A DNA stretch of 64,000 nucleotides from an uncultured bacterium (GCA_965370685.1 CBDUVN010000001.1:1763-65762), one strand, 5' to 3'. Positions 9,252 to 44,327 are shown, counted from the first letter of the stretch. Made by a program: numbers and translations. Notes: generated by a model from the letters alone, not told the origin.

Positions 9252-9555
9252 GATATCGGCGCAGCATGCGTCGTGTCTTCAGGTCGGCACGCAGGCCGAC
9301 AGCGAACACGAGCGTCATCCCGAACAGGATCGAGAGAAACACGACGGCCGACAGCGGAATCGACCGCAGAGTTACGATTCCCAGTCGAAGCGTGACCCTC
9401 TCGCCGATGTTCAGCCAGGCGAACAGGGCCGCGAGGGCCGAGCTTCCAAGGATGATGGCGATCCGGCCGGGAACCCCGTTCACCGGACGACCTCCCCGAT
9501 GAACGTCGCGCCGGTCGTCGAGACCAGGCGGACCTGGCGAAAGCTCCCGACCCAC
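9190..9555 (-). CDS. small two-TM membrane protein, LapA/DUF1049-like (lipopolysaccharide assembly protein A family)
   Basis: The architecture is two TM helices (IAIILGSSALAALFAWL and LSAVVFLSILFGMTLVFAVGL) followed by a basic tail (RADLKTRRMLRRYREAL), as in LapA/YciS. The ORF overlaps the miaB 3' end by about 75 nt and the annotated comEC start by about 60 nt, so the true start is probably internal (alternative codon). Confidence 0.45.
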   Translation of the reverse strand: MGRELSPGPPGLDDRRDVHRGGRPVNGVPGRIAIILGSSALAALFAWLNIGERVTLRLGIVTLRSIPLSAVVFLSILFGMTLVFAVGLRADLKTRRMLRRYREALGEEWPQGRPEDEQEGP

Positions 9556-10874
9556 GATTCTTCGCCCGGAAACACGACGACCTTGTTCGTCCCCGTGCGG
9601 CCGAGCATGTCCCCGTCCGTGCGAGCCGGCCGCTCGACGAGGACTTCGGTGATCCCTTCGAGCTCCTGGTCGTGAATCTCCCGCCGGATCTCACGGTGCA
9701 GCGCGATGAGCTCGGACAGACGACGACCGGACGTCTCCTGATCTACGAAATCGGCCGCAGGCAGACGGGTGGCCGGCGTACCCTCCCGCGGAGAGTACCG
9801 GTAGAGAAAAGCGTCGTCGAACCGGACGCGGCGCAGCAACTCGGCGGTGTGCTCGAAGTCCTGCTCCGTCTCGCCGGGGAACCCGACGATCACATCCGTG
9901 CTCAGCGCGATCCCCGGGACCCGGTCCCGGACCCGGTCCACGATGTCGAGAAATTCCTCCCGCGAATAGCGCCGGACCATGCGCTTCAGCATGCGATTCG
10001 ACCCGGACTGGACAGGCAGGTGGAGCTGTGGGCAGACAGCGGGCTCCGTGGCCATCGTGTCGAGCAGCTGATCGGTGACATCGTTTGGATGGGGTGACGT
10101 AAACCGGACCCTCCGAACTCCGTCCACCCGGGCGACGTCGCAGAGCAGTTGCGCGAAGTCCGTCGTACCGTGGCGATAGGAGTTCACGGTCTGACCGAGG
10201 AGCGTCACCTCTGGAAACCCGGATTCGACCGCGTTCCGAACCTCGGAAAGAATCGTCGCCGGACTTCGGTTCTTCTCCGGACCGCGAACGTACGGAACGA
10301 TGCAGAACGTGCACCGATGATCGCAGCCTCGCTGGACCGTGATCCATGCGCTCACACCCGCCCGGCGAATCGAGGATACCCCGTCGTAATTCTCCTCCTC
10401 GTCCAGTTCGAGCAGCAGTTGACCCCTCGCGAGCGCTCCGCCTCGGATTCCGTCGACGACATCGCCCAGTCGCCGATAGGAATCCGGACCGGCCACCAGG
10501 TCCACGCCGGCCGAGCGTTCCAAGAGATCGGGACCGAGCCGCTGTGCCATGCAGCCGGTGACGGCCAGCACGACATCCGGCCGGTCGCGCCTCACCTGCT
10601 GCAGCTGGCCGATCCGACCGAGAACCCGCTGCTCTGCATGTTCGCGGATCGCACAGGTGTTGATGACGATCACGTCCGCCTGTGCCGGGTCGTCCACCGT
10701 TACGTAGCCGCGGTCCGCCAGCGCTCCGGCCATGATCTCGGAGTCGCCGATGTTCATCTGACACCCGTAGGTCTCGATATACGCGCGGCGGGATATCGGA
10801 ACCGGAGGACCGGAGTTCGGCCCGGACCGCATCCGCGCCGTACGCCGACGCAGCGGAACCAGGGGCTCGCTCAT
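9480..10874 (-). CDS. miaB: tRNA-2-methylthio-N6-dimethylallyladenosine synthase (radical SAM methylthiotransferase)
   Basis: Contains the MTTase N-terminal domain YIETYGCQMN, the radical-SAM motif CDHRCTFCIVP and a C-terminal TRAM domain. Confidence 0.9.
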   Translation of the reverse strand: MSEPLVPLRRRTARMRSGPNSGPPVPISRRAYIETYGCQMNIGDSEIMAGALADRGYVTVDDPAQADVIVINTCAIREHAEQRVLGRIGQLQQVRRDRPDVVLAVTGCMAQRLGPDLLERSAGVDLVAGPDSYRRLGDVVDGIRGGALARGQLLLELDEEENYDGVSSIRRAGVSAWITVQRGCDHRCTFCIVPYVRGPEKNRSPATILSEVRNAVESGFPEVTLLGQTVNSYRHGTTDFAQLLCDVARVDGVRRVRFTSPHPNDVTDQLLDTMATEPAVCPQLHLPVQSGSNRMLKRMVRRYSREEFLDIVDRVRDRVPGIALSTDVIVGFPGETEQDFEHTAELLRRVRFDDAFLYRYSPREGTPATRLPAADFVDQETSGRRLSELIALHREIRREIHDQELEGITEVLVERPARTDGDMLGRTGTNKVVVFPGEESWVGSFRQVRLVSTTGATFIGEVVR

Positions 10875-11046
10875 ACGCTTCCGTGTGTCATGATTCGTGT
10901 CTGCTCCTCAACGCAATCGCAACGATCGGGGCCGGAAACTACGAGCCGACAGCGCCCGCGGTCCACAATCTCCCCACCGGGCACTGCATATGGGCGTATC
11001 CGGCCGGGCTTTGCCGATTCTGTCAGGTCATCATAGCATTCCCGGC

Positions 11047-11817
11047 ATGGTGACGGTCGAGCAAGTCCCGTTTGACGGAATGCAAGTACCGGTCGAAGTT
11101 TACGCTGGTCCCGACCGGCCTCTGCTGTTCCTCCCCGGGTTCGGCGTGCATCCGCTGAACTACCGGGAGGGTGTCGAGAGGCTTGCGCGTCATTTCACGG
11201 TGTTCATGCCGGACCTCTCCTTCCGGACCCACGCTGAGCTCCCACTCCAGGTCGCCCGGTACAAGGCTTTCGTCGAGTTGCTGGCCGATCGATATGCACC
11301 GGAAGCACCGCGGACCGGCCACTCGTTCGGCGGTCTGCTGGCGCTCCTCGGAACTCGCGAGGCCGTGGCCCTCGCGCCGATGATCCCGATTGCCGTCGGC
11401 TGGCCCACCAAGGTCCGGAGAGCAATTCTCCTCGAGTTGCGCGAACTCGTCGGGCTCGAGGGTCGGAGAGGAGTCCGATGGGCGTTCCACATCTCCGGAG
11501 AATACATTCGGACCGCGGCACGCAGGCCGCACTGCCTGTTCCCCTCCGTGTCCGAGACACTCGGACGGATCCACGAGGAGTTCCTCCCGACAGCGCCGAA
11601 CTCGACGCTGGTTCTCGCCAGGCGTGATCGATTGTATCTGCAATCAGAGTACGACGCGTACCTGGCCCTGTCCGACACGACGCGAATCGAGACGCGGTAC
11701 GTGTCGCGGGGGCACGATTGGCCGGTGACCCACCCGGGGCTGGTGGAACGGGAGGTGCTGGAGGCCCTGCGCATCGAGCGCCCTGCGGATATCGCGCGAA
11801 CCGACATTCCGGCCTGA
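11047..11817 (+). CDS. alpha/beta-fold hydrolase
   Basis: GHSFGG nucleophile elbow (GxSxG) and an LFLPGFG N-terminal motif. I chose the ATG at 11047 (MVTVEQ...) rather than the upstream table start. It is divergent from miaB. Confidence 0.7.
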   Translation: MVTVEQVPFDGMQVPVEVYAGPDRPLLFLPGFGVHPLNYREGVERLARHFTVFMPDLSFRTHAELPLQVARYKAFVELLADRYAPEAPRTGHSFGGLLALLGTREAVALAPMIPIAVGWPTKVRRAILLELRELVGLEGRRGVRWAFHISGEYIRTAARRPHCLFPSVSETLGRIHEEFLPTAPNSTLVLARRDRLYLQSEYDAYLALSDTTRIETRYVSRGHDWPVTHPGLVEREVLEALRIERPADIARTDIPA

Positions 11818-11843
11818 AAACACCGACGGGCCGAAAAGACGTC

Positions 11844-13061
11844 TCAGAGCTGGAACAGGGACATGGAGATGGACAGCCGCCGAAAGCTCTCCTGGACAAA
11901 GCTGGTCTCGAGGTCTCCGCGCGTGCCTAATTCGACGGCCAGGTCGAAGGCCGCCAGCCCTCCGGATACCTCGAGCCCGACACCGAACGTGACCGCGGTC
12001 TCCACAAGTTGCTCGGTTCCGACCAGGAAGAACGGCAGGTCCGTGCGGCGCACGCCTGCACGCAGGGGAAGGCCGGCACCGAACACCGAGAAGCCGACAT
12101 ACTCCAGGCCCACGCCGAACCAGAATACATCGGCCGCAGAGGCACTGTTGAGGTCCTCGCTGGTCGTAGACCATCCCGAGTAGCCGAGTGCTGCGGTAGC
12201 GAGCAGACTGGAAGTAATCTGGCCGCTTCCGCCAATCGCCCACTCTAGCGGCATCGAGAAGTCGAACCTGTCGGCACCCTGGTCCACGGAATCTCGCTTG
12301 GCCTTGAAATCGGTAGTCAGGCCGATCACCCCGGAAAGTCGGATCCGGGAGCCCAGTTGTGTCGCCGCTCCCCCGCGAATGCGGAACCCCGAAAAGCTGA
12401 ACTGGGCGTCACCGCCGGCGATTCCGATGTTGACGGTAGGATCCTCGAGAGATGGCTCGAAGGTCCGGAAGAACGATTGCCGCAGACTGCCCGTGAGGAT
12501 CGAGCCATCGATTCCGACGCTGAATCTGCCGACGTCCCGCGCAGCGGTCAGCGTTACCGAACTCAAGCCGCCGTCGTGCTCACGACGCTCGTCATACGGG
12601 AAGGTGCCGAACGATGATCTCAGCGTGTCCTGGAGGTTGACGCCCCAGTCCATGTCGAGTTCCGCCGTGAAGCCGAGACCAAAGGTCCAGGATCGGATCG
12701 GAACGGCGGCCTGGACGATCGCGACACGGCTGCGCCCCGTCGTCTGAGAGCCCCCGGGCGAATCCACGGTTATTGCCTCAGGAGCGTACGTCAACCCCAG
12801 CGTCGGTCGGCGGAATCCCCGCAGATCGGCAGGATTCCGGCTGGACAGACTCCCACCGAGAAGTCCCATGCCCGTTCCGCCCAGGGCCGCGGCTCGTGCA
12901 TCGATCGCCGGGACCGGGTACCCGAGACCGAGCCCCGTGACCGGCATCTGAGCCATCATCGAAGGGGCGAGCATCAATAAAAGCAATCCCGCCAGACCGG
13001 GAACCCGGACGATTGATGATCGAATAGAGCCAGTACGATTCGAAGTCACCGGCCGCCTCAT
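11844..13061 (-). CDS. outer-membrane beta-barrel protein, FadL/OmpP1/PorV-like
   Basis: Has a signal peptide (GLAGLLLLMLAPSMMAQ). The N-terminal Gly-rich hatch segment IDARAAALGGTGMGLLGGSLSSRNPADL, with its NPA motif, resembles the FadL family plug. The amphipathic beta-strand pattern runs to the C-terminus. Confidence 0.6.
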   Translation of the reverse strand: MRRPVTSNRTGSIRSSIVRVPGLAGLLLLMLAPSMMAQMPVTGLGLGYPVPAIDARAAALGGTGMGLLGGSLSSRNPADLRGFRRPTLGLTYAPEAITVDSPGGSQTTGRSRVAIVQAAVPIRSWTFGLGFTAELDMDWGVNLQDTLRSSFGTFPYDERREHDGGLSSVTLTAARDVGRFSVGIDGSILTGSLRQSFFRTFEPSLEDPTVNIGIAGGDAQFSFSGFRIRGGAATQLGSRIRLSGVIGLTTDFKAKRDSVDQGADRFDFSMPLEWAIGGSGQITSSLLATAALGYSGWSTTSEDLNSASAADVFWFGVGLEYVGFSVFGAGLPLRAGVRRTDLPFFLVGTEQLVETAVTFGVGLEVSGGLAAFDLAVELGTRGDLETSFVQESFRRLSISMSLFQL

Positions 13062-14323
13062 GGGGCCGTGAACGGGACGCGAGGTGTCACCAGCAGTCGC
13101 ACGCTGGGCCGGAGCTCCGGTGCGTCCTCCGCCGAGCCAAATCGCCAGAATCCGGGATCACGTCCCTCCGGCAGCGCCCTCAGGCCGACCCTCAGCACGG
13201 TGATCGAATCGGCCGAGGCGAGCGACCACGCGAGCACGAGCCCCGTGATACTCAGCACCAGCTCCGCGCCGTCCTCCGTGATCGTGTCGGGATCCAGCAA
13301 CACGTTAGGCCCGAGGGTGGCTCCGATCGGAGTCTTCGGCCCGACCACGAACGGGTCCGCGAGAAGCAGGAAAGACGTGACCTCCAGCGGGAACTCGAGC
13401 AGAAACGGAATCGGCGCCGGCGGGCCGGGCCTGAAAACGAGCGACGCGGCGTTGATCGTCGACCCCTTCAACTGCAGACCCTGCCAGGTATCCGGCAACT
13501 CGAAGTCGAGATAAATCCTCGACGATGGCAGTCCCGCCAGGCGTGACGTCTGACCCGGGTCCGGGGTTTCGGGAGCGAAGATCACGGTGGTGCCTGCCGG
13601 CGAGCGCGCCGCCGCGATGAGAGTGTCCTGAGTCTCCGGCTTCGCGTCGAATACCAGTGCGATCGACGAGACCTGGACAAACGCGGTCGATCCCGAAGCA
13701 CCGATCGCAAATCCGGGCTCTCCACCGGTGGCCCGCCAGGCGGACAGGACGCTGTCGGTGCTCACCACGAACGGCACGAAGACCGTGTCAGAGACCGTCG
13801 AATCGAATGGCGCGTCGATCCTCAACGTGGCGATCCGCTCCCCCAGGTCCCCACCGGGAGTCGACCACGGAACGTCGGTATCCGCGAGCGTCCACGTCGC
13901 CTGCTGCTGTGCGTACCTGCGCGTCAGTGTGTAAACCTCCAGATCCATCCCGAGGGGCGGCACGTGGCTGAACGCCGTGTCGATGATCAGTCGAAACCGG
14001 CCGTTGGCAAACCCCTCGATCGCTTCCCGCCCGGTGGGAGTGTCGATCGAGTCGGGAAGCGTTTCGATGCGCCCGAGCAGACGGGCCTGCTGGTCCACCG
14101 AGTCGACGACGACCCTGTAGTTGGAGGACGCCGGAAGCACGTAACCCGAATACGTGGTGTCCCGCCAGGACAGCAATCCCTCGACAGGAATCTCAATTTC
14201 TTCCGTCGGAGTCTTCTGCCCGGGGGACGTTTGAGAGTCGACTTCGAGCAGCGCGCGTTCCGTGCAGCCGGCCGTGACGAGCGCGACAGCTGCAAGCACG
14301 ATCGCGGCCGGAAGCCGCCTCAT
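13058..14323 (-). CDS. hypothetical lipoprotein (no recognisable domain)
   Basis: Signal peptide plus lipobox MRRLPAAIVLAAVALVTAGC. It overlaps the downstream OMP start by 4 nt and the upstream cdd stop by 4 nt. Confidence 0.65.
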   Translation of the reverse strand: MRRLPAAIVLAAVALVTAGCTERALLEVDSQTSPGQKTPTEEIEIPVEGLLSWRDTTYSGYVLPASSNYRVVVDSVDQQARLLGRIETLPDSIDTPTGREAIEGFANGRFRLIIDTAFSHVPPLGMDLEVYTLTRRYAQQQATWTLADTDVPWSTPGGDLGERIATLRIDAPFDSTVSDTVFVPFVVSTDSVLSAWRATGGEPGFAIGASGSTAFVQVSSIALVFDAKPETQDTLIAAARSPAGTTVIFAPETPDPGQTSRLAGLPSSRIYLDFELPDTWQGLQLKGSTINAASLVFRPGPPAPIPFLLEFPLEVTSFLLLADPFVVGPKTPIGATLGPNVLLDPDTITEDGAELVLSITGLVLAWSLASADSITVLRVGLRALPEGRDPGFWRFGSAEDAPELRPSVRLLVTPRVPFTAP

Positions 14324-14754
14324 CGTGAGTCCCCCGGCCCGGGCCCAGGCACGGATCGCAGAGCGAAGCGCTCGGGCAACAGACCACTCAGGGCCCAGCT
14401 CGCACGGTCACCACTCCCGCTCTCGCTCTCGACTTCCAGCTCCGGGGCGAACTCCGCCAGCGCCTGCCTGCACATCCCGCAGGGCGCGACCGGCACATCC
14501 GCGTCGGTGCACAGAAAAATCCGTCGGAACTGACGGGCGCCAGCCGCGACAGCGGCTCCCAGGGCCACTCTCTCGGCACACATCGTCACTGCATAAGAGG
14601 CATTCTCTACGTTGCAGCCCACAAAGCACCTGCCGTCGGCGGCCTCGAGACATGCCCCCACCCTGAAGTCGGAATACGGGGCGTAGGCTGCGTCACGAGC
14701 CCCCAGGGCAAGCGACCGCAGACTGTCGGCTTCCGTTGTTCCGTCCTCACGCAT
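14320..14754 (-). CDS. cdd: cytidine deaminase
   Basis: Zinc-binding motifs CAERVALGAA and PCGMCRQ, and AAYAPYSDFRVGA near the N-terminus. I chose the internal ATG (MREDG...) at 14754, which clears the alr stop; the table start is 14802. Confidence 0.82.
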   Translation of the reverse strand: MREDGTTEADSLRSLALGARDAAYAPYSDFRVGACLEAADGRCFVGCNVENASYAVTMCAERVALGAAVAAGARQFRRIFLCTDADVPVAPCGMCRQALAEFAPELEVESESGSGDRASWALSGLLPERFALRSVPGPGPGDSR

Positions 14755-14782
14755 TCCGTTCTCCGTGTGCCGGCACGGGGCG

Positions 14783-15925
14783 TCAGCGCCCGGACCGTTC
14801 ATGCATCTCTATCCTGGGCAGCCGGCGGCTCCAGCCCGTGAGGATCTCGTAGTCAATCGTACCGCACAGCTCAGCGATTTCATCCAGCCCGATCTCCGTG
14901 CCCCCGTCCGGGCCGAGAACAGTCGCCACGTCGCCCGGGCGAACATCATCGCGATCACCGATCTCGACTACCGTCGAGTCCATGCACACGACACCCCGAA
15001 TCGGAGCCGAACGTCCGTGAATCAACACCCGTCCACGGTTCGACAGTTCGCGGCGCAGACCGTCTCCGTACCCGATTCCGATCGTTGCCAGCCGCCCGGG
15101 GCCCGGGGAGCTCCACGTCGCCCCATAACTCACCGTGGCACCGGCCTCGACCTCCCGGACATCGAGGATCCGGGATCGAACCGCCACGACCGGACGACCC
15201 CGCGGCTCCCAATTCCCGCCGCCGTACAGCCGGATCCCCGGCCGTACCAGGTCCGCGGAGAATTCCTCATACCGGAGAATCGCCGCACTGTTCGCTGCGT
15301 GCACGACCCCGGTATCGACACCGGCTACCCGCAGCGCCTCCAGGGCACCGACGAACCGGGTCCACTGAACCAGCGTCTGCTCAGGGCTCGTGTCAGCGGA
15401 GTGAAAATGCGTCAGCGTTCCCCGCAGACGCAGCCCTCCGAGCGACAGCAACTCCGCCACCTCACCAGCCCGACGATCCGCATCGCGCCAGCCAAGACCG
15501 AAGCGGCCCATTCCGGTGTCGATCTCGAGATGGAATGGCAGTGAACCTCCTGCCTTCCGAGCGGCGAGACCGCAAGCCGCAAGCATATCACAGCCCGAAA
15601 CCGCGGGCTCGAGCCGTCGTTCCAACAACTCCCGTGTGTCCGACGGAAGCGTCGGGGAGAATACGATGATCGGACCCGCCCAGCCGAGCGAGCGCACCGC
15701 GGTCCCCTCGTCCGTCGTGGCCACGCCGAATCCCCACGGACCGAGGGACATGAGCGTACGCACCGCTCGGCCCAGCCCGATTCCATAGGCGTCGGCCTTC
15801 ACCATGGGGAGAATGCCGCAACCCGGTGACAGGCGTTCAGCGAAGGAGCCGAAGTTCGACCGGAGCGCATCCAGATCCACTTCGACCCAGGCGCGGCGCT
15901 TGGGCTCGATTGACACGTTTTTCAA
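14783..15925 (-). CDS. alr: alanine racemase
   Basis: PLP-lysine motif ILPMVKADAYGIGL and a C-terminal beta-domain. TTG start. Confidence 0.88.
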   Translation of the reverse strand: MKNVSIEPKRRAWVEVDLDALRSNFGSFAERLSPGCGILPMVKADAYGIGLGRAVRTLMSLGPWGFGVATTDEGTAVRSLGWAGPIIVFSPTLPSDTRELLERRLEPAVSGCDMLAACGLAARKAGGSLPFHLEIDTGMGRFGLGWRDADRRAGEVAELLSLGGLRLRGTLTHFHSADTSPEQTLVQWTRFVGALEALRVAGVDTGVVHAANSAAILRYEEFSADLVRPGIRLYGGGNWEPRGRPVVAVRSRILDVREVEAGATVSYGATWSSPGPGRLATIGIGYGDGLRRELSNRGRVLIHGRSAPIRGVVCMDSTVVEIGDRDDVRPGDVATVLGPDGGTEIGLDEIAELCGTIDYEILTGWSRRLPRIEMHERSGR

Positions 15926-15948
15926 GACCGGGATAGTATACCTGCCAT

Positions 15949-16815
15949 ATGTCTGACGAGCAACAGATTTTCAGCGATTCCGGAGAGCGTTCGGAGCACC
16001 TGGCGCAGACCCGAGATGCCGACTCAGCTCTGGGTCGTAGTCTGGCGCTCGTCCGCTTCCTCCGGGCGGGCTGTCCCTGGGATGCGAAGCAGACGCCGTC
16101 CACTTTGCGCCCCTATCTGCTCGAGGAAGCGCACGAGGTGGCCGAGGCGATCCGGAGCGGGGACGAAGAGGAGCTGTCGTCGGAGCTCGGAGACCTGCTG
16201 CTGAACGTCGCGTTTCAGGTCGTGCTGGCTGAGGAGCGAGGTTCCTTCGGCCCGGAGGAAGTCGTCGCCGGCCTCGAGAAGAAAATGCGTGACCGGCATC
16301 CGCAGCTGTACGGCGAGGCCGACGAGGCTCCCGACTGGGAGGAGCTGAAGGCGAGGCTGAAAGCCGAGTCGGCAGCTGACTCCGGGCGATCAACGGATCC
16401 GTTCGACGGAGTCCCGACGGGTCTCGAGCCGCTCAGCAGGTCCCTGCGCCTGCAGGACAGGGCCGCCGCGCGAAACTTCGACTGGCCGGACGTGACTGGA
16501 GCGCTGGAGAAGCTGCACGAGGAGTTGGGCGAACTCGAGCAGGAACTGGCCCGGTCGGACGTGGATCCGGCGGACGAGGATCTACGTGACCGGATCGAAG
16601 ACGAAGTCGGAGATCTCCTGTTCGCGGCGGTCAATGTGGCACGGCTTGCAGGGATTCACCCGTCAACTGCCCTCGAGCGGGCCGCCGGCAAGTTCGCCGC
16701 GCGGTTCAGGGCTCTGCTCGATCTCGCCGCTGACCGGGACATCGACCCCGACGACTCTGACCTGGAGACTCTGGATCGGCTGTGGGAGGAAGTGAAGAAA
16801 GGGCCGCGGTCCTGA
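15949..16815 (+). CDS. mazG: nucleoside triphosphate pyrophosphohydrolase MazG
   Basis: Tandem MazG domains with GCPWD, EEAHEV and GDLLLNV / EEVGDLLFAAVNVAR motifs. Confidence 0.88.
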   Translation: MSDEQQIFSDSGERSEHLAQTRDADSALGRSLALVRFLRAGCPWDAKQTPSTLRPYLLEEAHEVAEAIRSGDEEELSSELGDLLLNVAFQVVLAEERGSFGPEEVVAGLEKKMRDRHPQLYGEADEAPDWEELKARLKAESAADSGRSTDPFDGVPTGLEPLSRSLRLQDRAAARNFDWPDVTGALEKLHEELGELEQELARSDVDPADEDLRDRIEDEVGDLLFAAVNVARLAGIHPSTALERAAGKFAARFRALLDLAADRDIDPDDSDLETLDRLWEEVKKGPRS

Positions 16816-21709: not shown

Positions 21710-23677
21710 CTAACGAAGACCGAGGCGGCGGCGCCAGGTCCACTCGGCGCACAGGAGGCCGGCAGCGAGCACGTACGGCCAGAGTGAAGGTACCGTTCGT
21801 CGTCCCGCTGGCCGTCGGGACGATGACGTCGGCGCACGCGTGGTGAGCGAGGCACCGACGTCCCGGCCACTCAGCTCCACTGTTGGTCCGGCGACGGCGA
21901 ACGGACGGCCGACCACGAAGGCTGCGCCCTCCAGCTGTCCTCGTGCCTCGTACTCCAGATCGCCCTCCGGAAGGTCAGGTCCCTCGACCCGATCCGCGGG
22001 CATGCCGATCGAGTCTGTCCACACCACGCTTCCAGTCGAATCACGGATCGCAATGACGAGATCCACGACGCCCGGTGCAATGCTCCAGGCGATCGAGGCC
22101 CGTCCGTCAACCGGGTCCGCAGCCAGGATCACCGGAACGCGACGGAAGTCCCCGAGCAGCCATCCTGTAATTCCTGCATACAAACCACGATACACCGCCC
22201 GGGCGGAACCGGTTCGAGCCGACCACCGCCAGGTCCCCTCGGCCAGCACCAGCACCCGCCGACCGCGTTCGGTTACGAATCCGACCGCCGCCGGCAGCGC
22301 GTCCCCGCGACGGTCTCGCCGAAGCTGGAGAATTGGCCACGCTCCAGCACCCTGGACAGAGCGTAGAGCGGCGACCGGAGGGAGCCCTTCCGCCTCGAGA
22401 CCCGACAGAGACCCCGCGACCGGGCTCGAGGGAGATGGCAGCACGGGAAACCATTCTCCCTCCACCGGCGTTCCGACGGCGAAGTCGCTTCCGGGCAGCT
22501 TCCCGCTGCCTCGCGCCAGGACAAGGACTCGGGCGTGGCGACCCGTAAGGTCGCGAAGCCATGGGGGAAGTTCGGCCATACCGCCCTGCACGACCAGCAT
22601 TCCCGCGCCAGCAGCCTCGGAGCGCACCCGCGTACCGGTGATCGGCTCCGGGACGGTCCCGACCCTCACCCATCGATCGGGCCCGATTCGCAGGTACGCC
22701 CGCGCACCCCCGCTGCTCGCCCGCGCCAGGACCGGAAGAAGCTGGCGCGGCTCCCAGTCCGGATCGATGGAAACCAGGACGACACCTGCCCTGCCCCGGG
22801 TGATCTCGACCCACACGGTCCGCCTCTGTTCCGCTTCCAGTGGGTCCGCCCCGGGGTCGAGTGATACGCCGAACCGGCGCCAGGCAGACTCCTGGCGGAC
22901 ACCCGGTGCCGGAATCCGCAGCTGTACGATCCTGCTGCGTCCCGCAGACGGGCGCTCTACCCGAACCGTGTCTTTCGTACCGGCCGGTCCCTCGACCGTG
23001 ACCGTGACCGAATCGTCACCCGGTGTCGTTCCCCCGCTCGCAGGCGTCGAGATCTCGACCGCGAACGAGATCGTGTCGCCGGCCGAGACCCGGCCAGGCG
23101 CCGATACATCCCGCACGGTAGTTCGAATCACCGATTGCGCCGTCCTGATTTCACGCACCTGAAGACCCAGTCGCTCCGCTTCCCGCCTCGAGTCCTCGCG
23201 GTCCTCCAACTCCCCATCGGTGATCAAGACGACGCTGTCAGCACCCGCGGCGCGAGCCACCCGGAACGCGGTCGCGAGTCGGCTCCCCGCGCGATCCACC
23301 GCCTCGATCACACGGTCCAGCTCCGTCGGCTCGACAGCGGCCGTGGCCGACATCCCGAAAGCCACCACGCGATCCGGCGCCAGACGCTGAACTTCCGCCC
23401 GGCCGGAGTCGAGCCGGGTCGGTCCTCCGGGAAGACTCGGAAGGTCCATGCTCGCTGAGATATCCAGGATCGCGACGCGCGGCGTGGGAGCGGTCGGGGA
23501 GGGTCGAAGCGGGGGCAGGACGAGACCGGCGAGAATCAGGAACAGGGCAATCGCGAACAGTATCCCGGGGCCCGTCCTGCCGGGCACCGCTTCTTCACGA
23601 AGGCCGTAGCGGATCCACGCGGCCGCCGCGGCCGCGATCGCCGAGCCGGACAACCACACGACCGGGCCGGAGAGCAT
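21710..23677 (-). CDS. BatA-like membrane protein with N-terminal double-TM segment and vWA (MIDAS) domain
   Basis: N-terminal two TM helices, a MIDAS-like DISASMD...VVLITDGE region, and a C-terminal TM anchor (LWPYVLAAGLLCAEWTWRRR). 655 aa. Confidence 0.6.
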   Translation of the reverse strand: MLSGPVVWLSGSAIAAAAAAWIRYGLREEAVPGRTGPGILFAIALFLILAGLVLPPLRPSPTAPTPRVAILDISASMDLPSLPGGPTRLDSGRAEVQRLAPDRVVAFGMSATAAVEPTELDRVIEAVDRAGSRLATAFRVARAAGADSVVLITDGELEDREDSRREAERLGLQVREIRTAQSVIRTTVRDVSAPGRVSAGDTISFAVEISTPASGGTTPGDDSVTVTVEGPAGTKDTVRVERPSAGRSRIVQLRIPAPGVRQESAWRRFGVSLDPGADPLEAEQRRTVWVEITRGRAGVVLVSIDPDWEPRQLLPVLARASSGGARAYLRIGPDRWVRVGTVPEPITGTRVRSEAAGAGMLVVQGGMAELPPWLRDLTGRHARVLVLARGSGKLPGSDFAVGTPVEGEWFPVLPSPSSPVAGSLSGLEAEGLPPVAALRSVQGAGAWPILQLRRDRRGDALPAAVGFVTERGRRVLVLAEGTWRWSARTGSARAVYRGLYAGITGWLLGDFRRVPVILAADPVDGRASIAWSIAPGVVDLVIAIRDSTGSVVWTDSIGMPADRVEGPDLPEGDLEYEARGQLEGAAFVVGRPFAVAGPTVELSGRDVGASLTTRAPTSSSRRPAGRRTVPSLWPYVLAAGLLCAEWTWRRRLGLR

Positions 23678-25062: not shown

Positions 25063-26226
25063 TCAGTCCATCTGCCTCCGGATAAACGTCGGTATCTCCA
25101 GGTCCTCGAGCTGCAGACGCGATCCTATCTGTCCGCGAATCTGGTCCCGGCGTGCGTCAAACGCCTCGGGCCCGCCACCGGCCATACTCACCAGTCGCGG
25201 CAGCGCTTCCAGCGGCGCCGGAGTGGCCGGAACGACCTTGAGGGTCGGAACGGGCTCGACGTCCACCTCGTCCCCGAACCCGGTGGCGATCACGGTCACC
25301 CGAATCCGGCCGTCCAGATCGGGATCGTGTACGGCTCCAAAGATCATCTCAGCTTCGTCACCGGCGGCCTCCTGCACGATCGAGTTGATCGTCGTGACCT
25401 CGTCGATCGCCAGGTCCATCCCACCGGAGATATTCACCAGCACACCCGTAGCTCCGTGGATGGATACGTTGTCGAGAAGCGGTGAGCAAATCGCCTGTTG
25501 AGCGGCCTCGACCGCCCGGTTCTCCCCGGTTGCTTCCCCCGTACCCATGAGCGCCGCACCGCGGTTCGACATCACCGTGCGGACATCCGCGAAGTCCACG
25601 TTGACCTCGCCGGTGACGCTGATCAGATCTGAGATGCCCTGGGTGGCGTGGAGCAGGACTTCATCCGCCTTCTTCAAAGCCTCACGGAACGTCGTTCCCT
25701 TCCCCACTACCGACAGCAGTCGCTCGTTCGGAACCACGATCATCGTGTCGACGGCTCGACGCAGATCCTTCAGGCCGAGATCGGCGTGACGCATCCTCTT
25801 CTTGCCCTCGAACAGGAACGGGCGTGTCACGATCGCGATCACCAGGGCGCCGAGCTCGGAAGCGATCTGACCGACCCGTGGAGCAGCTCCAGTACCTGTC
25901 CCACCGCCCATTCCAGCGGTTACGAACACCAGGTCTGCGCCATCCAGGGCTTTCCGGATTTCCTCCTCGTTCTCGGAGACCGCCTGTCTCCCCACCTCCG
26001 GACGCGCCCCCGCACCGAGACCTCGGGTGAGCTTGCGGCCGATCTGGAGCCTGATGTGGGCTTCACAGTTCTTCAGCGCCTGCGCATCAGTGTTGATCGC
26101 GACGAACTCGACTCCATCGAGGTTCTCGTCGATCATCCGGTTCACGGCGTTTCCTCCAGCGCCGCCGACACCCACGACTTTCATCCGCGCGTTGCGTGTT
26201 CCGCCGTCGTCGAACTCGAATACCAT
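25063..26226 (-). CDS. ftsZ: cell division protein FtsZ
   Basis: Tubulin signature [13 protein letters not shown] and the motif [15 protein letters not shown]. Start at the internal Met (MVFEFDD...), 387 aa. The upstream 76 codons of the table ORF are read-through. Confidence 0.95.
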
Positions 26227-26336
26227 CTGTCCCTCCCGTTCGAGCGTTTTTCCTGCGCTTCCGTCCCTTCGGGTCATCCGCCGCTCAGGCGACCGCCTCT
26301 CAGTGGTGGCTCCTTCACGAGTCCGATCCCGTCCCA

Positions 26337-27569
26337 TCAGAAGAACTCCCTGAACCAACTCGACACGCGCCCGATCGCGCGCACGGCGGAGCCGACCGGT
26401 CTTTCCGCCCGGCGATGGCGTCCGTACAGCGCCAGTCCCACCGCCGTAGCGCACTCGGGCCTCCGTACCGCATCCACGAGCCCGGACAGGCCGGGCCCCG
26501 GTTCGCCAAGTGCGACCGGGAGATTGAACACTTCCTGGGCGAGCTCGACTACGCCGTCCATTCGAGCCGTCCCGCCGGCCAGAACCACTCCTGCCTGCAA
26601 CCCGTCGAGCAGTTCGCGGGAATCGAGCTCGTCGTAGATGAGTCCGAGCATCTCGTCCAGCCGTTGCTCGATGATGTGGGCGAGAAGTTCCTTCGAGACG
26701 GTGCGTACGGTTCCCGGAGTCGGCCCGGGGATCTCGAGCATTTCCGATGCATCGACGCGCTTCGTCTGCGCGCTCCCGTGCTCCGCCTTGAGGCGCTCGG
26801 CCTCGGCCGCCGATACTCCGAGTCCTTTCACGATGTCGCTTGAAACCGTCGCGCCTCCCCAGGGAAGGGTCGCGAACAGCCGGAGTCGCTCGTCTTTGAA
26901 TGCGAGTACTTCGGTAGCCGCTGCACCGATCTCCACCACCACGACTCCCACACGTCGCTGCTCCTCGGAGAGCACTGCGAGATTGGTGGCGAGCGGAGCG
27001 AGAACGAGTTCCTCGAGTCTGAATCCGGCCCGGTCGATCGCCTTCCGGAGGTTCTGAGCCGGAACCGAGCCGGCAGTCACCACGCAGACTTCGGATTCGA
27101 GCCGGGTAGCCTCCATCCCGGTCGGGTCCTGCACGGCCGGAATTCCATCGACCACGTAGTCCTGTGGAATCGCGTGCAGGAGCTCCCGGTCCGGCGGAAC
27201 CACGACCGCACGTGCCACTTCGTGAACCCGGTCGAGGTCCCGCGGGAGGATCTCCCGGCCCAAGATCGCCACGACCCCGGTGGAGCTGTCTACCTCCACG
27301 TGGTCACCGGAAATGCCGGCATACACGACGGATGCCTCGGCACCGGCCATTTCCTCGGCCAGCCGGAGAGCTTCCCTGATCGATTCGGTGGCGGCGTCCA
27401 GGTTTGTCACGACACGATTCCGGACACCGGATGTCGGTGCCTCTCCGATCCCCAGGACCCGGGCCTCGACATCGCCGTCTCCCCACGCGACGCTCAGTTC
27501 CACGAGAACTGCGCACGTGGTCTCGGATCCGACATCCAGGCCGGCCAGACAGCGGGTACCGTTCATCAC
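26337..27569 (-). CDS. ftsA: cell division protein FtsA
   Basis: Actin-fold ATPase with GLDVGSETT and [13 protein letters not shown]. Overlaps the ftsQ stop (ATGA). Confidence 0.92.
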
Positions 27570-28306
27570 CGCTCGCCTCCAGTGCGCACAAAGACCTTCT
27601 CGGCGTACCGGGCATCGGCCGATACGATGACTCCCCGCTCTTCCGCGGCCTGGATTGCGGCTGCCGCCTGAAGGAAGGCCCGCGACGCGTCCCGATAGGG
27701 CAGCGTGATGCTCTCGACGATACTTCCGTCCATCAGCTTCAGATCGAACGCCTCCGAGTCGAGCGCCAGGACTTCGGAGACTCGTTCCACGAACTCCGGC
27801 GCCAGTAGATCGATCTCCTCCAGGACAGCGAGTGATCGCCTCGCTTCCTCTTCACGAATTCGTCCAGTGGCTGAGTCGATCGTGGCATCCCGGAGAATCG
27901 GTAAGTCCAGCCTGTGCACGGCAGGATCCACGTCGAGCCGATACCCATCCCCATCCACTGCTACGAGCCCGGGAACCGGAACCAGCGCGACAGGCCTGAC
28001 CTCTCGTACCTCGATCCGCAACCGATCCGGTCCGGCCCGCACCACACGAGCTTCCGCGACCAGGGGATGTTCGACGATCGATGATTCCCAGCTGCCCGGG
28101 TCGTCCCAGATCGAAGACAGAGAATCGATCCCCGACATCTGTCGGAGGTCCGCACCGGATGCGAATCGAGTCCCGACAACATCGACCGTCTTCACATGGA
28201 ACGCGGGAATCCCGCGGAGAATCGGGGGACCCCAGACGGGGCTCGAGATTCCAACGAGCGCGCTCGTGAGAGCGACCGTGAGTCTGCGCCGGCTCTGCCG
28301 GGTCAC
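27566..28306 (-). CDS. ftsQ: cell division protein FtsQ (POTRA domain)
   Basis: TM helix (LTVALTSALVGI) plus POTRA and FtsQ beta-domains. A GTG start overlapping the murB stop (GTGA) is proposed; the table ORF extends to 28414. Confidence 0.75.
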   Translation of the reverse strand: MTRQSRRRLTVALTSALVGISSPVWGPPILRGIPAFHVKTVDVVGTRFASGADLRQMSGIDSLSSIWDDPGSWESSIVEHPLVAEARVVRAGPDRLRIEVREVRPVALVPVPGLVAVDGDGYRLDVDPAVHRLDLPILRDATIDSATGRIREEEARRSLAVLEEIDLLAPEFVERVSEVLALDSEAFDLKLMDGSIVESITLPYRDASRAFLQAAAAIQAAEERGVIVSADARYAEKVFVRTGGER

Positions 28307-29253
28307 GAGACGGCCCCCACGGACTGGAGCTCTTCGGTCTCGAAGCCCCAGAACCGGATTTCCGGCTCCAGCGCGATCCCGACCTGCTCCAGAACCCGGC
28401 GTCGAGTCTCGCACATCAGCGCGAGCACGTGCTCCGCCTTCGCCTGGTCGAGATTCGCGATGAAATTCGCGTGCTTTTCAGTGATCTGAGCCCCTCCTGT
28501 CCGGGCACCCCGCATTCCGACCGCTTCCACCAGTTCCCAGGCCGATCCCCACCCGGCCCCGGGGTTCTTCCACACGGACCCGCAGCTCGGGAGGTCGTAG
28601 ACCTGGGTCGCCACCTTCCTTCGCCGGCGTTCGAAGTGCTCGGCCTCGACTGCTTCCGGATCGCCAGGACTGGTCCTGAACCGGGCCGACGTGAACACCC
28701 ATTCCTCCGGAATCTCGACCCGCCGATACGTGGGCCGAGCGTCAGCCGCCGTCAGCCGGACGAGTTCGCCGTCTGGAGTCACGGCCTCCGCCTCGATCAC
28801 CCGATCCCAGATTCCCGTGTCGGTGGAACCGGCGTTCATCCGCAGGCCTCCGCCGACACTCCCCGGCACAGCTTCGAGAAAGCACCAGCTCTCAGCTCCG
28901 ATACGGCGTGCTTCACCGACGAGCGCAGGAAGGCCAGCGGCACCGCCGGCCTCGATGATTCCGGGAATTGTCCGGATCGAGTCGAGCTCATCCCCGAGCA
29001 CGAGTACGGGACTCGAGACGCCGCGATCAGCGACGAGCAGGTTTGCCCCCCACCCCAGCGTGAGAAATGGCTCTCCCGCCAGGTCGGCCAGCGCTTCGAT
29101 CAGATGCGAGACCGAGGAAACGCGGCCGAAGCGGGCAGCCGCGCCCCCGATCCGCCAGCGGACCTCGTCCGCGAGATTCACCTCAGACTCCCAGCGCATC
29201 ACCCGTGAGCTCCCTCGCCGCGCGGTGCGCGGCATCCGTGACATCCCCGGCAC
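28303..29253 (-). CDS. murB: UDP-N-acetylenolpyruvoylglucosamine reductase
   Basis: FAD-binding domain (GWGANLLVADRG) and C-terminal MurB domain (GSVWKNPGAG). The start may be the internal ATG near 29199. Confidence 0.85.
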   Translation of the reverse strand: MPGMSRMPRTARRGSSRVMRWESEVNLADEVRWRIGGAAARFGRVSSVSHLIEALADLAGEPFLTLGWGANLLVADRGVSSPVLVLGDELDSIRTIPGIIEAGGAAGLPALVGEARRIGAESWCFLEAVPGSVGGGLRMNAGSTDTGIWDRVIEAEAVTPDGELVRLTAADARPTYRRVEIPEEWVFTSARFRTSPGDPEAVEAEHFERRRRKVATQVYDLPSCGSVWKNPGAGWGSAWELVEAVGMRGARTGGAQITEKHANFIANLDQAKAEHVLALMCETRRRVLEQVGIALEPEIRFWGFETEELQSVGAVS

Positions 29254-30622
29254 CCATGAACACGATCACCGTCTCGCCGCGAGCCTCCGAGGCGAGATCT
29301 ACGGCCTCGTCCACTCTGCCTTCCCGGACGTGTCCCGGCGCTTCCCGTACCACGAGTCCTGCATCCACGCCTTCGATCGGTTCCTCACGCGCCGGGTAGA
29401 TCGGCAGCACGAGCGCCAGATCGGCCGCGGACAGCTCGCGCCCGAATTCCGCCGCCATCGCCTGCGTCCGGCTGTAGAGATGCGGCTGGAATGCGACGAT
29501 CAGTCGCGCACCGGGCCATGCGGACCGTAGTGCCGAGACGGAAGCGCGAACTTCCGTCGGGTGGTGCGCGTAGTCGTCCACGATTACCACGCCGTCGCGG
29601 GAGCCGAGAACCTGGAGCCGCCGATCCACGCCCCGGAACTGGCGCAGACAGCCGCCGATGGTGTCCGCCTCGGCTCCCAGACGGATCGCTGAAACGAGTG
29701 CAGCGGCAGCGTTCTGGGCGTTGTGAGCGCCGGGAGCCGCGAGATCGAACGACAGCTCCAGCTCCGGGCCGCTCACCCGGCAGCGCTGCCCGTCGGGGGC
29801 GGTCGCTACGATTTCGACCCGGTAGTCTGCCGAAGCGGAGAACCCGTAGCTCAGGGAGGAACCGATCCGCCCCGCGAGCTCGAGGGCTCCCGCGTCATCT
29901 GCGCACACGAGCACACCGATTCGATCGGCAGCGGGAGCGGCGAACGTCTCGAATGCGGATCTCAACTGGGTCTCGCCGCCGTAGCATTCCAGGTGCTCGG
30001 GCTCGACGGATGTTACGATTGCGAGCGACGGATCGAGCTGGAGGAACGATCGGTCGTACTCGTCTGCCTCGACCACGGCCTCCGGGCCTCCTCCGATCCG
30101 CGCGTTTCCGCTCCACTCGGATACGTGGCCACCTGTGAGGACCAGGGGGTCCCTGCCGGCGGCTTCGAGGGCCAGACCCAGCATCGTCGTCACCGTCGTC
30201 TTGCCGTGCGTTCCGGCCACGGCCGCGAGCCGCCGCTCGTTCACCAGGGCTGCGACCGCGGCGGCCCGTTTCAGGACCGGGATGCCGGCTTCACGTGCCG
30301 CGGAGAGAGCCGGGTGCTCGTCCGGGATGGCCGAGCTCCGGATCAGCACATCTGCATCGGTGGCGGCCGAGGCGTCCGAGTCAGACAGGGGAGTCAGGCC
30401 GATCGCGGAGAGGGAGGCGACCGCTGCCATGTCGCGGTCTGAGCCCGAGACTTCCCATCCACCGTCGATCAGTACCGCAGCCAGTGCACGCATTCCGGCT
30501 CCGGCCGCCCCGAGCAGGTGCACCCGGGAGCCAGGGTTCGGGAGATCCGACAATCGCGGGTACCGATCAGCCACGAGCATCAGCCTCCCCGCTCTCCATC
30601 TCCCGCGACTCGAACTCACCAT
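29183..30622 (-). CDS. murC: UDP-N-acetylmuramate--L-alanine ligase
   Basis: VHLLGAAGAGMRALA N-terminus, GTHGKTTVT P-loop and DDYAHHPTE. The start is probably the internal ATG near 30580. Confidence 0.9.
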   Translation of the reverse strand: MVSSSRGRWRAGRLMLVADRYPRLSDLPNPGSRVHLLGAAGAGMRALAAVLIDGGWEVSGSDRDMAAVASLSAIGLTPLSDSDASAATDADVLIRSSAIPDEHPALSAAREAGIPVLKRAAAVAALVNERRLAAVAGTHGKTTVTTMLGLALEAAGRDPLVLTGGHVSEWSGNARIGGGPEAVVEADEYDRSFLQLDPSLAIVTSVEPEHLECYGGETQLRSAFETFAAPAADRIGVLVCADDAGALELAGRIGSSLSYGFSASADYRVEIVATAPDGQRCRVSGPELELSFDLAAPGAHNAQNAAAALVSAIRLGAEADTIGGCLRQFRGVDRRLQVLGSRDGVVIVDDYAHHPTEVRASVSALRSAWPGARLIVAFQPHLYSRTQAMAAEFGRELSAADLALVLPIYPAREEPIEGVDAGLVVREAPGHVREGRVDEAVDLASEARGETVIVFMGAGDVTDAAHRAARELTGDALGV

Positions 30623-31739
30623 CGTCTCCCCGCTCGGCGAGATCGAGCAGTTCCCGGGCGATCCGATCGGCCGCGCCGGGACGTCCGCGGGCGCTCATGG
30701 CGGAAGCCATCTCTCGCAGCCTGTCCTCTTCGCGCAACAGATCGAGGACCGACTCCCATAACTCACCGCTCTGCATCGATCGCTCCTCGAGCATCACTGC
30801 CGCTCCGGATGCGGACAGCGCCGCTGCGTTGTGTCGCTGGTGGTCCGCCGCCGCTGCGGGGAATGGAACGAGCACCGCCGGCACGCCGGCTGCGCCCAAC
30901 TCGGAGCAGAGCATCGCGCCTGACCGGCAGATCGCGAGGCTCACACCTGACAATCGGCCGCCGAGGTCATCCACGTACGGAACCGCCAGGATCCGATCCG
31001 ACCACCGACCGTCGGCAACCGCGCTCGAGACTGACGCGTAGTGGTTCGGTCCCGTGATCCACACGAGCGTAGTGTCAGATGGCCATTCCGTCGCGGCTTC
31101 GAGGTCCGCGAGCAACCGCTCGTTCAGACCTCTCGCCCCCTGGCTTCCTCCGATTACCGCAGCGACCCGGCCGCTCGGCCAGCGGAACCCGTCTTCCTCT
31201 GCCTCATTCCGGGGGGACGACGTCGGAGTCGCCACGGGATTTCCCCACGAGAACACGTCGGTGTGCGGACCGGGAGAAAGATGCTCAACCGCCTCCGGGT
31301 AACCGAGGAAGATGCGGTCCACCTTCGGGGCAAGTCGTCGGGTCACCAGGCCGGGGAATGCGTTCTGCTCCTGCAGGGCGGTCTTTCGGCCGGACAACAG
31401 TCCGTACAGAACCGCGGGACCCGACGCGTACCCGCCGGTACCGACGACGACGTCCGGATCCAACTCGTTGAACAGGCGTCGCATGCCGTTCATCACCGCG
31501 GGCGCAGATGCAGCGAGCCGCCAGTTCCTCACCACTCGACCGCGACGGAATGGCTGCATCGGGAGCAGCCGATATGGAACGCCTGCCTTCGGGAGCACCG
31601 TGGCCTCGATTCCGCGTGACGCTCCGACAAGCATGAGTTCCACGTCGGGCCGCGCAGCTCGAAGCGCGGTCGCCAGGTTCAGTGCCGGGTACAGGTGTCC
31701 GCCCGTTCCGCCGCCGGCGAGCAGGATCCGGGCGCTCAT
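30567..31739 (-). CDS. murG: UDP-N-acetylglucosamine--N-acetylmuramyl-(pentapeptide)-PP-undecaprenol GlcNAc transferase
   Basis: The internal Met start (MSARILLAGGGTGGHLYPAL) gives the GGTGGH motif. The ATG at 31739 overlaps the ftsW stop (ATGA). Confidence 0.92.
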   Translation of the reverse strand: MSARILLAGGGTGGHLYPALNLATALRAARPDVELMLVGASRGIEATVLPKAGVPYRLLPMQPFRRGRVVRNWRLAASAPAVMNGMRRLFNELDPDVVVGTGGYASGPAVLYGLLSGRKTALQEQNAFPGLVTRRLAPKVDRIFLGYPEAVEHLSPGPHTDVFSWGNPVATPTSSPRNEAEEDGFRWPSGRVAAVIGGSQGARGLNERLLADLEAATEWPSDTTLVWITGPNHYASVSSAVADGRWSDRILAVPYVDDLGGRLSGVSLAICRSGAMLCSELGAAGVPAVLVPFPAAAADHQRHNAAALSASGAAVMLEERSMQSGELWESVLDLLREEDRLREMASAMSARGRPGAADRIARELLDLAERGDDGEFESREMESGEADARG

Positions 31740-33004
31740 CGTCCGCGGGCCTTCGCCGAAGACACGTTGAGCAGGATCCCGGTGGCTGCGAGCGTGATTA
31801 CGAGGTTCGTGCCACCCGCGCTGATGAACGGGAGGTTGACTCCGGTGGTGGGGAGCAAACCGAGTGCGATGCCGATGTGGGCGAATGCCCCGAGTGCGAC
31901 ACCGGCGGTGATCCCGGTGGCGAGGAGACGCCCGAACAGGTCCGGCGCGGAACGGGCGACGCGGAAGCCCAGGTGCACCCACAGGGCGAACAGACCGATG
32001 ACCGCGACGGCACCGATGAATCCCCATTCTTCAGCGATGATCGAGAAGATGAAGTCGTTCTGCGGCTCCGGGAGGAACTGCATCTTCGTCGTGCTGCGCC
32101 CGAAGCCCACTCCGGTCAGTCCGCCGGAGCCGACTGCGATCAGCGATTGCTTGAGCTGATAACCGCCGGCGCCGGCCGCCGCCTCCGGATCGAGAAACGC
32201 CACGAACCGCTGTAGTCGATACTGGGCTGTCGCAACCTGGGTCGCTGCCAGAACCATCACGGACGCGCCGAGCAGAGCGAAGTGTCCGATTCGCGCTCCG
32301 GCAGCGAACAGGACGGTGCCGGCGAGGACGGCGATCCACATCGCTGCGGAAAAGTGCGGCTCGAACAGCACGAGCAGACAGACTGGCGCGAGAACGATGA
32401 GGAACGGGAAGATTCCCTCGCGAAAATCGTGCAGCGAGTCCTGCTTCTTGACCGCCAGTGCGGCCGTCCAGATCACGACCGCCAGCTTCGTGAGCTCTGA
32501 TGGCTGCATCGTGAACCCCAGGTCGAGCCAGCGGCGGGCCCCGTTGACCGTGGGCGCGATCGCTTCGGTTCCGGGGAGGACGAGCGGAACGAGCAGAATG
32601 GTCGTAATCGCGAGAATCGGCCACGCGAGTCGGCGGTACACCCGATAGTCGAGAATGCTGGCAGCAGCCATCACCATGCACCCGATTCCGGCACGATTCG
32701 CCTGCTGGAACAGGTAGTAGGTGTCCGGGCGACCTGCCTGTTGGGCCACGTACGAGCTCGCGCTGTACACCGACAGGAGGCCAAAGCCCACCAGGACGAG
32801 GGTTGCGACGAGCAGTCCGCGGCCCGAGGCGGAAGGAGAGTCGACCGCCGGTCGAACCGGGAATCCGCGGAGTCCGAGTGCTCCCGCTCTCGTAGGTCGA
32901 TCCCGCTTCACGGAGCCGACTCCACCGGCTGCAGACCGACTACTGCCGCCTCGAAGGCTCGGCCCCGCTCCAGGTAATTCGGGAACATGTCGTAGCTCGA
33001 GCAC
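31736..33004 (-). CDS. ftsW: peptidoglycan glycosyltransferase FtsW (SEDS family)
   Basis: Ten-TM SEDS protein with the conserved motifs RWLDLGFTMQPSELTK and PFISAGGTNL. Confidence 0.9.
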   Translation of the reverse strand: MLELRHVPELPGAGPSLRGGSSRSAAGGVGSVKRDRPTRAGALGLRGFPVRPAVDSPSASGRGLLVATLVLVGFGLLSVYSASSYVAQQAGRPDTYYLFQQANRAGIGCMVMAAASILDYRVYRRLAWPILAITTILLVPLVLPGTEAIAPTVNGARRWLDLGFTMQPSELTKLAVVIWTAALAVKKQDSLHDFREGIFPFLIVLAPVCLLVLFEPHFSAAMWIAVLAGTVLFAAGARIGHFALLGASVMVLAATQVATAQYRLQRFVAFLDPEAAAGAGGYQLKQSLIAVGSGGLTGVGFGRSTTKMQFLPEPQNDFIFSIIAEEWGFIGAVAVIGLFALWVHLGFRVARSAPDLFGRLLATGITAGVALGAFAHIGIALGLLPTTGVNLPFISAGGTNLVITLAATGILLNVSSAKARGR

Positions 33005-44252: not shown

Positions 44253-44327
44253 TGGGCGAAGCAGGATTCGAACCTGCGACCTCCTGCGTGTAAAGCAGGC
44301 GCTCTGGACCAACTGAGCTATTCGCCC
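44253..44327 (-). tRNA. tRNA-Val (anticodon UAC)
   Basis: Minus-strand sequence GGGCGAATAGCTCAGTTGGTCCAGAGCGCCTGCTTTACACGCAGGAGGTCGCAGGTTCGAATCCTGCTTCGCCCA folds as a cloverleaf. It has a 7-bp acceptor stem, an anticodon loop TTTACAC and a T-loop TTCGAAT. It is 75 nt with no encoded CCA. Confidence 0.88.

Follow-up and report, generated by a model that had tools for sequence, protein, structure and literature searches.

The stretch of DNA considered here (hereafter "the window") comprises 64,000 nucleotides from an uncultured bacterium (GCA_965370685.1 CBDUVN010000001.1:1763-65762), and all coordinates refer to that whole stretch. Two adjacent genes in it encode a lipoprotein and an outer-membrane β-barrel that are very probably the Gemmatimonadota counterparts of BamH and BamG, subunits by which the "β-barrel-assembly machinery" (BAM) of the Bacteroidota is extended. 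This assignment is supported by family and fold identity, by the signal sequences of the two proteins, and by the strict pairing of their genes. Analogy with the Bacteroidota complexes further suggests that the pair is surface exposed, binds BamA, and functions in the assembly of outer-membrane proteins, and it is probably neither a fatty-acid channel nor a type IX secretion (T9SS) shuttle.

The extended machinery of the Bacteroidota was described in 2025 (Liu et al., Nature, PMC12611786; Nature Microbiology, PMC12578637). In these organisms, BamA-BamD is joined by additional subunits: BamG, a barrel of the FadL family, is bound to the back of BamA and plugs the lateral opening with its N-terminal tail, while BamH is a surface lipoprotein whose tail wraps around BamG at a groove and whose body forms an extracellular canopy above the folding site (PMC12611786, PMC12578637). 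Strands 3-7 of BamG serve as a pillar (PMC12611786). Of the seven other FCB phyla, six have BamG and BamH, which the Chlorobiota alone lack (Liu et al., PMC12611786). Supplementary Table 1 of the same paper lists BamG (GAU_1453) and BamH (GAU_1452) of Gemmatimonas aurantiaca as adjacent genes (PMC12611786), with further adjacent pairs in Chitinophaga, Ignavibacterium, Salinibacter, Fibrobacter, and Caldithrix. A first-pass annotation of the window had held that the lipoprotein and barrel match no characterised system. They do match one, the BamG/BamH pair of the Bacteroidota/FCB-type BAM complex (PMC12611786, PMC12578637); the system is already known and, with an adjacent Gemmatimonas pair already listed by Liu et al., is not of a new kind.

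The sole real family match of the barrel is to the NCBIfam model NF053685, "BamG family beta-barrel-assembly machinery protein" (E 4.5e-28), and it extends over the full length, with residues 44-402 aligned to positions 12-388 of the 397 in the model. A phmmer search with the single barrel sequence against the sequences of the PDB retrieved only 9n2d_B, "Bam G" of F. johnsoniae. A profile of the barrel family, built from 62 members and run against the same sequences, matched the BamG chains over approximately their full length (9hiv_F of B. thetaiotaomicron, 1.7e-15; 9n2d_B, 2.8e-14; 9hjm_F of P. gingivalis, 5.9e-9; the corresponding genes are BT_4367, Fjoh_1412, and PG_0448). The AlphaFold2 model (predicted local distance difference test, pLDDT, 85.4) shows a 14-stranded FadL-type fold with an N-terminal hatch, and in Foldseek comparisons the same three BamG chains rank at the top, with E-values from 2e-19 to 9e-16 and template-modelling (TM) scores of 0.71-0.74. 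The view that the barrel is FadL-like rather than a generic porin, its hatch being rich in Gly and bearing an NPA motif (SSRNPADL in the translation), is thus borne out, but by both sequence and structure the barrel is nearer to BamG than to the transport proteins FadL and TodX or to PorV.

These comparisons bear directly on two functions that had been suggested for the pair. The first is uptake of hydrophobic substrates, in which substrate captured at the surface by an accessory lipoprotein would pass to a FadL-type channel. The barrel has the 14 strands, hatch, and NPA motif of E. coli FadL, Pseudomonas TodX, and Ralstonia TbuX, Foldseek returns a probability of 1.00 to FadL as well as to BamG chains, and one domain of the lipoprotein resembles a carbohydrate-binding module (CBM). 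Such a role is nonetheless very unlikely. The barrel has no Pfam match at an E of 0.1 or better, the Toluene_X family of FadL included; the family profile finds TodX at 1e-4 and FadL at 0.3 (about 50 residues), both partial, as against 1e-15 over the full length of BamG; and the Foldseek matches to FadL and TodX, at about 1e-12, have TM scores of at most 0.61. Moreover, the partner lipoprotein matches BamH over both of its domains, whereas the channels named are without a lipoprotein partner, and genes for fatty-acid or aromatic catabolism are absent from the vicinity of the pair. The second suggestion, a cargo shuttle like PorV of the T9SS with an accessory lipoprotein, draws on PorV (6h3i_F, 8gl6_F) being also a FadL-family barrel, one whose extracellular loops bind surface proteins, and on a weak N-terminal match of the barrel to the NCBIfam model PorV_fam (NF033709; E 0.056). 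That match is at noise level, 13 bits against a cut-off of 90; the family profile finds the PorV chain at 0.013 over the N-terminal 70 residues only, and PorV chain 8gl6_F stands at rank 34 among the fold matches (E 1.5e-5, TM 0.39). No T9SS gene occurs within the window either. A PorV-like role is exceedingly improbable.

Individual parts of the barrel can also be compared with those of BamG. Conservation within the barrel family is highest in the tail and hatch (residues 41-80), with a majority fraction of 0.79-0.83 versus about 0.6 elsewhere, and the mature N-terminal residue, Q38, is invariant in 62 homologues. In the family profile, the tail aligns with the conserved tail of B. thetaiotaomicron BamG (BtBamG), Q23-NNTNSPYTRYGYG, the pattern P-x-T-x-x-G-x-G being common to both and followed, as in BamG, by the Gly-rich hatch with its NPA motif; a conserved C-terminal region with the motif G-x-(K/R)-G...E..F is likewise shared. 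Long hairpins, predicted to be extracellular as in BamG, are present as well: strands of 22-26 residues were assigned by DSSP in the barrel model (152-177, 180-201, and 214-236), and they may form an extracellular pillar on which the lipoprotein docks. Barrels of a distant branch of the family, discussed below, again have BamG as their best match (NF053685, 31-44 bits). In one of these (L068 7341-8519, BLASTP), the NPA of the hatch aligns to E-P-T, so that NPA is not universal in the BamG-like proteins of Gemmatimonadota.

The lipoprotein, in which the first-pass annotation had recognised no domain, presents a different situation. No match was obtained in Pfam or NCBIfam, nor any in the sequences of the PDB with phmmer or with profiles of 57 and 98 family members. 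Its AlphaFold2 model is confident, however (pLDDT 89.1; predicted TM-score 0.80), and reveals an elongated fold of two β-sandwich domains, one of which is like a chondroitin-sulfate-binding CBM. A Foldseek search of the PDB with this model returned one significant match, 9his_G, at E 1.2e-11, the next being at 1e-3. Entry 9his contains the extracellular components BamHIJK of B. thetaiotaomicron, and its chain G is Bt4306 (a DUF4270 protein in the naming of the preprint), the BamH of the final paper. Comparison of the model with individual chains (Table 1) places the BamH proteins of three species beside a single-domain CBM, and the match to BamH covers both domains.

Table 1. Comparison of the lipoprotein model with PDB chains; the two values recorded for each comparison are in the last two columns.
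Chain	Protein	First value	Second value
9hj3_G	B. thetaiotaomicron DUF4270	14.4	335
9hjm_G	P. gingivalis DUF4270	14.4	322
9n2d_C	F. johnsoniae "Bam H"	14.3	339
8wab_B	chondroitin-sulfate-binding CBM (single domain)	14.7	152

The lipoprotein thus shares with BamH (Fjoh_0823, BT_4306, PG_1835; DUF4270; 9n2d_C, 9hj3_G/9his_G, 9hjm_G) a lipid-bearing cysteine followed by a conserved tail, and two elongated β-sandwich domains that include a chondroitin-sulfate-CBM-like fold. The lipobox, LVTAG followed by C20, is clean, and all 57 close and all 98 distant members of the family have Cys20. Within the tail, no variation is seen at C20, E22, P34, or G35 and hardly any at T40, while residues 21-40 are of low confidence in the monomer model (pLDDT 42-59); by analogy with BamH, this may be the segment that wraps the BamG-like barrel. 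An exhaustive HMMER scan assigned 890 cluster representatives to the lipoprotein family, and all named members are Gemmatimonadota.

The third line of evidence is the pairing of the genes. Two peptide patterns were used to scan GTDB species genomes, giving 64 loci, one per genome, all from Gemmatimonadota except one labelled as an Akkermansiaceae metagenome-assembled genome (MAG). In each of the 62 loci that extend far enough (62/62), down to 32% identity of the lipoprotein, the barrel gene comes immediately after that of the lipoprotein. The same arrangement is found in two distant complete genomes (L068 and L069), whose lipoprotein and barrel each share about 25% identity with their window counterparts, in the order mazG(-), then alr-cdd-lipoprotein-barrel-miaB-like, with 4-nt overlaps at both junctions in the callers' own annotations. 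The lipoprotein is thus indeed a dedicated and conserved partner of the barrel, as had been proposed, and the pair is kept together in relatives. Adjacency of the two genes is also the rule for BamH in most FCB lineages outside the Bacteroidia.

The conserved order is longer than the pair itself. Across Gemmatimonadota, very distant members included, it runs mazG(-), alr, cdd, bamH-like, bamG-like, in some genomes abhydrolase(-), then miaB/rimO-like, a gene for a LapA-domain protein, and ComEC (window 9480-16815; L004-L069). Most of the 64 loci have alr and cdd upstream and nearly all have miaB downstream; alr is present nearly everywhere, and cdd is absent from L007, L038, L044, and L054. The link of the pair to alr and cdd is one of conserved gene order with translational coupling, and no shared function is indicated. 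The Akkermansiaceae (Verrucomicrobiota) MAG contig (L022; CAXMRU010000243.1, 61.5 kb) has the full synteny of Gemmatimonadota at 45-71% protein identity and is for this reason probably mis-binned.

How the two proteins might work can be outlined by homology with the cryo-electron microscopy structures from F. johnsoniae, B. thetaiotaomicron, and P. gingivalis. Both would be exported through Sec. The barrel, once cleaved between MMA and Q38, would be inserted in the outer membrane and would pack against BamA at the back of that barrel. The N-terminal tail of the inserted protein would fill the FadL-type hatch and the lateral opening, so that a structural subunit is proposed rather than a transport channel. 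After acylation at Cys20, the lipoprotein would reach the cell surface, where its tail may bind the barrel's long extracellular hairpins and its acyl chains would lie in the space between the two barrels. Its β-sandwich domains would then form a canopy over the site at which BamA folds its clients and may help in the assembly of outer-membrane proteins that have large surface-exposed parts. Additional partners of the kind of BamI-K or BamM are unlikely here because these are restricted to Bacteroidia or Flavobacterium.

Several observations weigh against the assignment to BamG and BamH. On the side of the barrel, the 98.4 bits scored against NF053685 are far under the equivalog cut-off of 250; the protein is only 15-18% identical to the solved BamG chains and comes from another phylum. 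NPA lies 38 residues from the mature N-terminus, compared with 43 in BtBamG and 32 in E. coli FadL (with FadL numbering taken from the titles of the N33A and P34A PDB entries), which leaves the tail about 5 residues short of that of BtBamG and its extension only intermediate; in addition, the tail is unplaced in the AlphaFold2 model (pLDDT below 50 for residues 1-42). For the lipoprotein, no sequence similarity to DUF4270 or BamH was detected, either by Pfam on the 98 members or by the 98-member profile against the BamH chains, and the assignment to BamH and any common descent with it therefore rest on fold and synteny. Its 421 residues are about 100 fewer than in the BamH proteins of F. johnsoniae and B. 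thetaiotaomicron (517-520 residues), the P. gingivalis protein having 439. The window copy reads CTERALL, with one acidic residue among the six after the lipid cysteine and E27 at +7, which is borderline for the acidic lipoprotein export signal, an indication of surface exposure that is taken as at least two D/E in those six and may not hold in Gemmatimonadota; at least two acidic residues at +1 to +6 are present in 45/57 close and 76/98 wide family members. Neither a BamA nor a BamD gene lies within the 64-kb window.

The relationship to the published Gemmatimonas pair is subject to a similar qualification. GAU_1453/GAU_1452 come from the same phylum, are adjacent, and have received the same assignment, whereas the organism of the window belongs to an uncultured marine or sediment lineage. 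No G. aurantiaca record was among the named family matches in cluster look-ups and in a homologue search seeded with a distant member (P0306), all of which were Gemmatimonadota MAGs. Phylum-wide synteny and family membership suggest that the window pair is orthologous to GAU_1452/GAU_1453. A literature search for BamH in a Gemmatimonad produced only papers that mention BamHI restriction sites.

Both the size of the lipoprotein and the operon arrangement of the pair resemble BamG2/BamH2, a non-essential pair of paralogues, which is a further point against the assignment and the basis of another reading, in which the window pair would be a module of this second kind, outside the main essential BAM complex and with a role that is separate or conditional. 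Among the pairs of B. thetaiotaomicron and F. johnsoniae, it is the paralogues (BT_1785/1786, Fjoh_1686/1685) that are encoded in operons; these are dispensable and not detectably expressed, and BamH2 is about 100 residues shorter than BamH and so near the size of the lipoprotein found here. Outside the Bacteroidia and Flavobacteriia, on the other hand, each genome is listed with a single BamG/BamH pair, whose genes are adjacent, G. aurantiaca included; the scan described above, limited as it was to two peptide patterns, gave one locus per genome; and the housekeeping neighbourhood of the pair is conserved across the phylum. A paralogue module of this type is consequently distinctly improbable. 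A more far-reaching proposal, also rather unlikely, is that the pair constitutes a minimal, ancestral-like BamGH module that forms a canopy without the extra lipoproteins of the Bacteroidota, or a BamG2H2-like one that acts independently of BamA in an undescribed surface-protein process. Counterparts of BamH and BamG proper remain the favoured identification.

Table 2 gives the positions of the genes and of the segments discussed. The cdd, lipoprotein, and barrel genes lie head-to-tail, and the tight coupling by 4-nt overlaps that had been described for them is confirmed by the presence of the three open reading frames and of ATGA at both junctions in the DNA (CACGATGAGGCGG and CCCCATGAGGCGG), the cdd/lipoprotein overlap being at 14320-14323. 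The gene alr is directly upstream, again as described.

Table 2. Genes of the conserved cluster and segments of the encoded lipoprotein and barrel in the window.
Feature	Position	Strand	Basis and remarks
alr (alanine racemase)	14783-15925	-	TIGR00492, 275.8 bits, above cut-off; first gene of the conserved cluster
cdd (cytidine deaminase, tetrameric-type)	14320-14802	-	TIGR01354, 128.8 bits, above cut-off; upstream of the lipoprotein gene
bamH-like gene, 421-aa lipoprotein, two β-sandwich domains, predicted surface canopy subunit	13058-14323	-	open reading frame, AlphaFold2 model, Foldseek
Lipoprotein signal peptide and lipobox, MRRLPAAIVLAAVALVTAG then C20	14264-14323	-	read from translation
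Lipoprotein conserved mature N-terminal tail, residues 20-45, CTERALLEVDSQTSPGQKTPTEEIEI	14189-14266	-	conservation, model pLDDT
bamG-like gene, 405-aa FadL-family outer-membrane barrel	11844-13061	-	NCBIfam, phmmer, family profile, AlphaFold2, Foldseek
Barrel signal peptide, residues 1-37, basic n-region, GLAGLLLLMLAP, cleavage between MMA and Q38	12951-13061	-	read from sequence
Barrel N-terminal tail and hatch, residues 38-80, QMPVTGLGLGYPVPAIDARAAALGGTGMGLLGGSLSSRNPADL	12822-12950	-	NPA motif at 12828-12836
Very long barrel β-hairpins, residues 152-236	12354-12608	-	DSSP strands in AlphaFold2 model

Public gene calls, which were taken from identical contigs, give other starts for some of these genes. 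The barrel is called from M30, as a protein of 376 residues with an 83-nt gap to the lipoprotein gene (L001 11350-12480). From this start the signal peptide is lost, and M30 was rejected; read from the DNA, the signal peptide is complete only from M1 (ATG 13061) or V5 (GTG 13049). The M30 call is thus almost certainly wrong, and the overlap or near-abutment of the lipoprotein and barrel genes is real. Many database entries of the barrel family may be N-terminally truncated by the same error. For cdd, the public start is M17 at 14754, giving a protein of 144 residues. A 20-nt overlap of alr and cdd appears only with longest-frame starts, those of the callers leaving a gap of 28 nt, which is probably the true junction. 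Between 11500 and 16300, terminator-like sites were at chance level (3 found versus 2.4 expected), and the one promoter-like match on the gene strand, inside the lipoprotein gene, was given no weight.

The window as a whole represents core chromosome, with a dcw cluster, lspA, ileS, tonB/exbB, ftsH, tsf, and rpsB, and this setting fits a housekeeping function of the pair in the cell envelope. SusCD genes, like those of the T9SS, are absent from its 64 kb. At 25063-38241 and 46553-47389 are a dcw-type cluster for cell wall and division, with ftsZ, ftsW, mraY, and two Mur ligase genes (one of them murC-like), and the lipoprotein signal peptidase gene lspA. A single RNA gene was detected, tRNA-Val(TAC) at 44253-44327. 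A 246-residue open reading frame at 51269-52009 (-) matches Ala_racemase_N only, as is typical of YggS-type pyridoxal phosphate-binding proteins, and provides a second such fold beside alr. Two other frames have coding-like G+C content at third codon positions and no Pfam match: one of 655 residues at 21710-23677 (-), between a Peptidase_M23 gene and ftsY and domain-less in the public call, and one of 459 residues at 58751-60130 (+).

Both genes of the pair are annotated as "hypothetical protein" in every public record examined. The branch of BamH described here is undetectable by sequence and unannotated, and no curated model recognises the lipoprotein family. Recognition of BamH and BamG in these loci allows annotation to be transferred to several hundred protein clusters of Gemmatimonadota and lends support to the published view of the extended BAM complex as an FCB-superphylum trait that reaches beyond the Bacteroidota. 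In Gemmatimonadota the two subunits are encoded as a compact operon module, which could prove easier to study.

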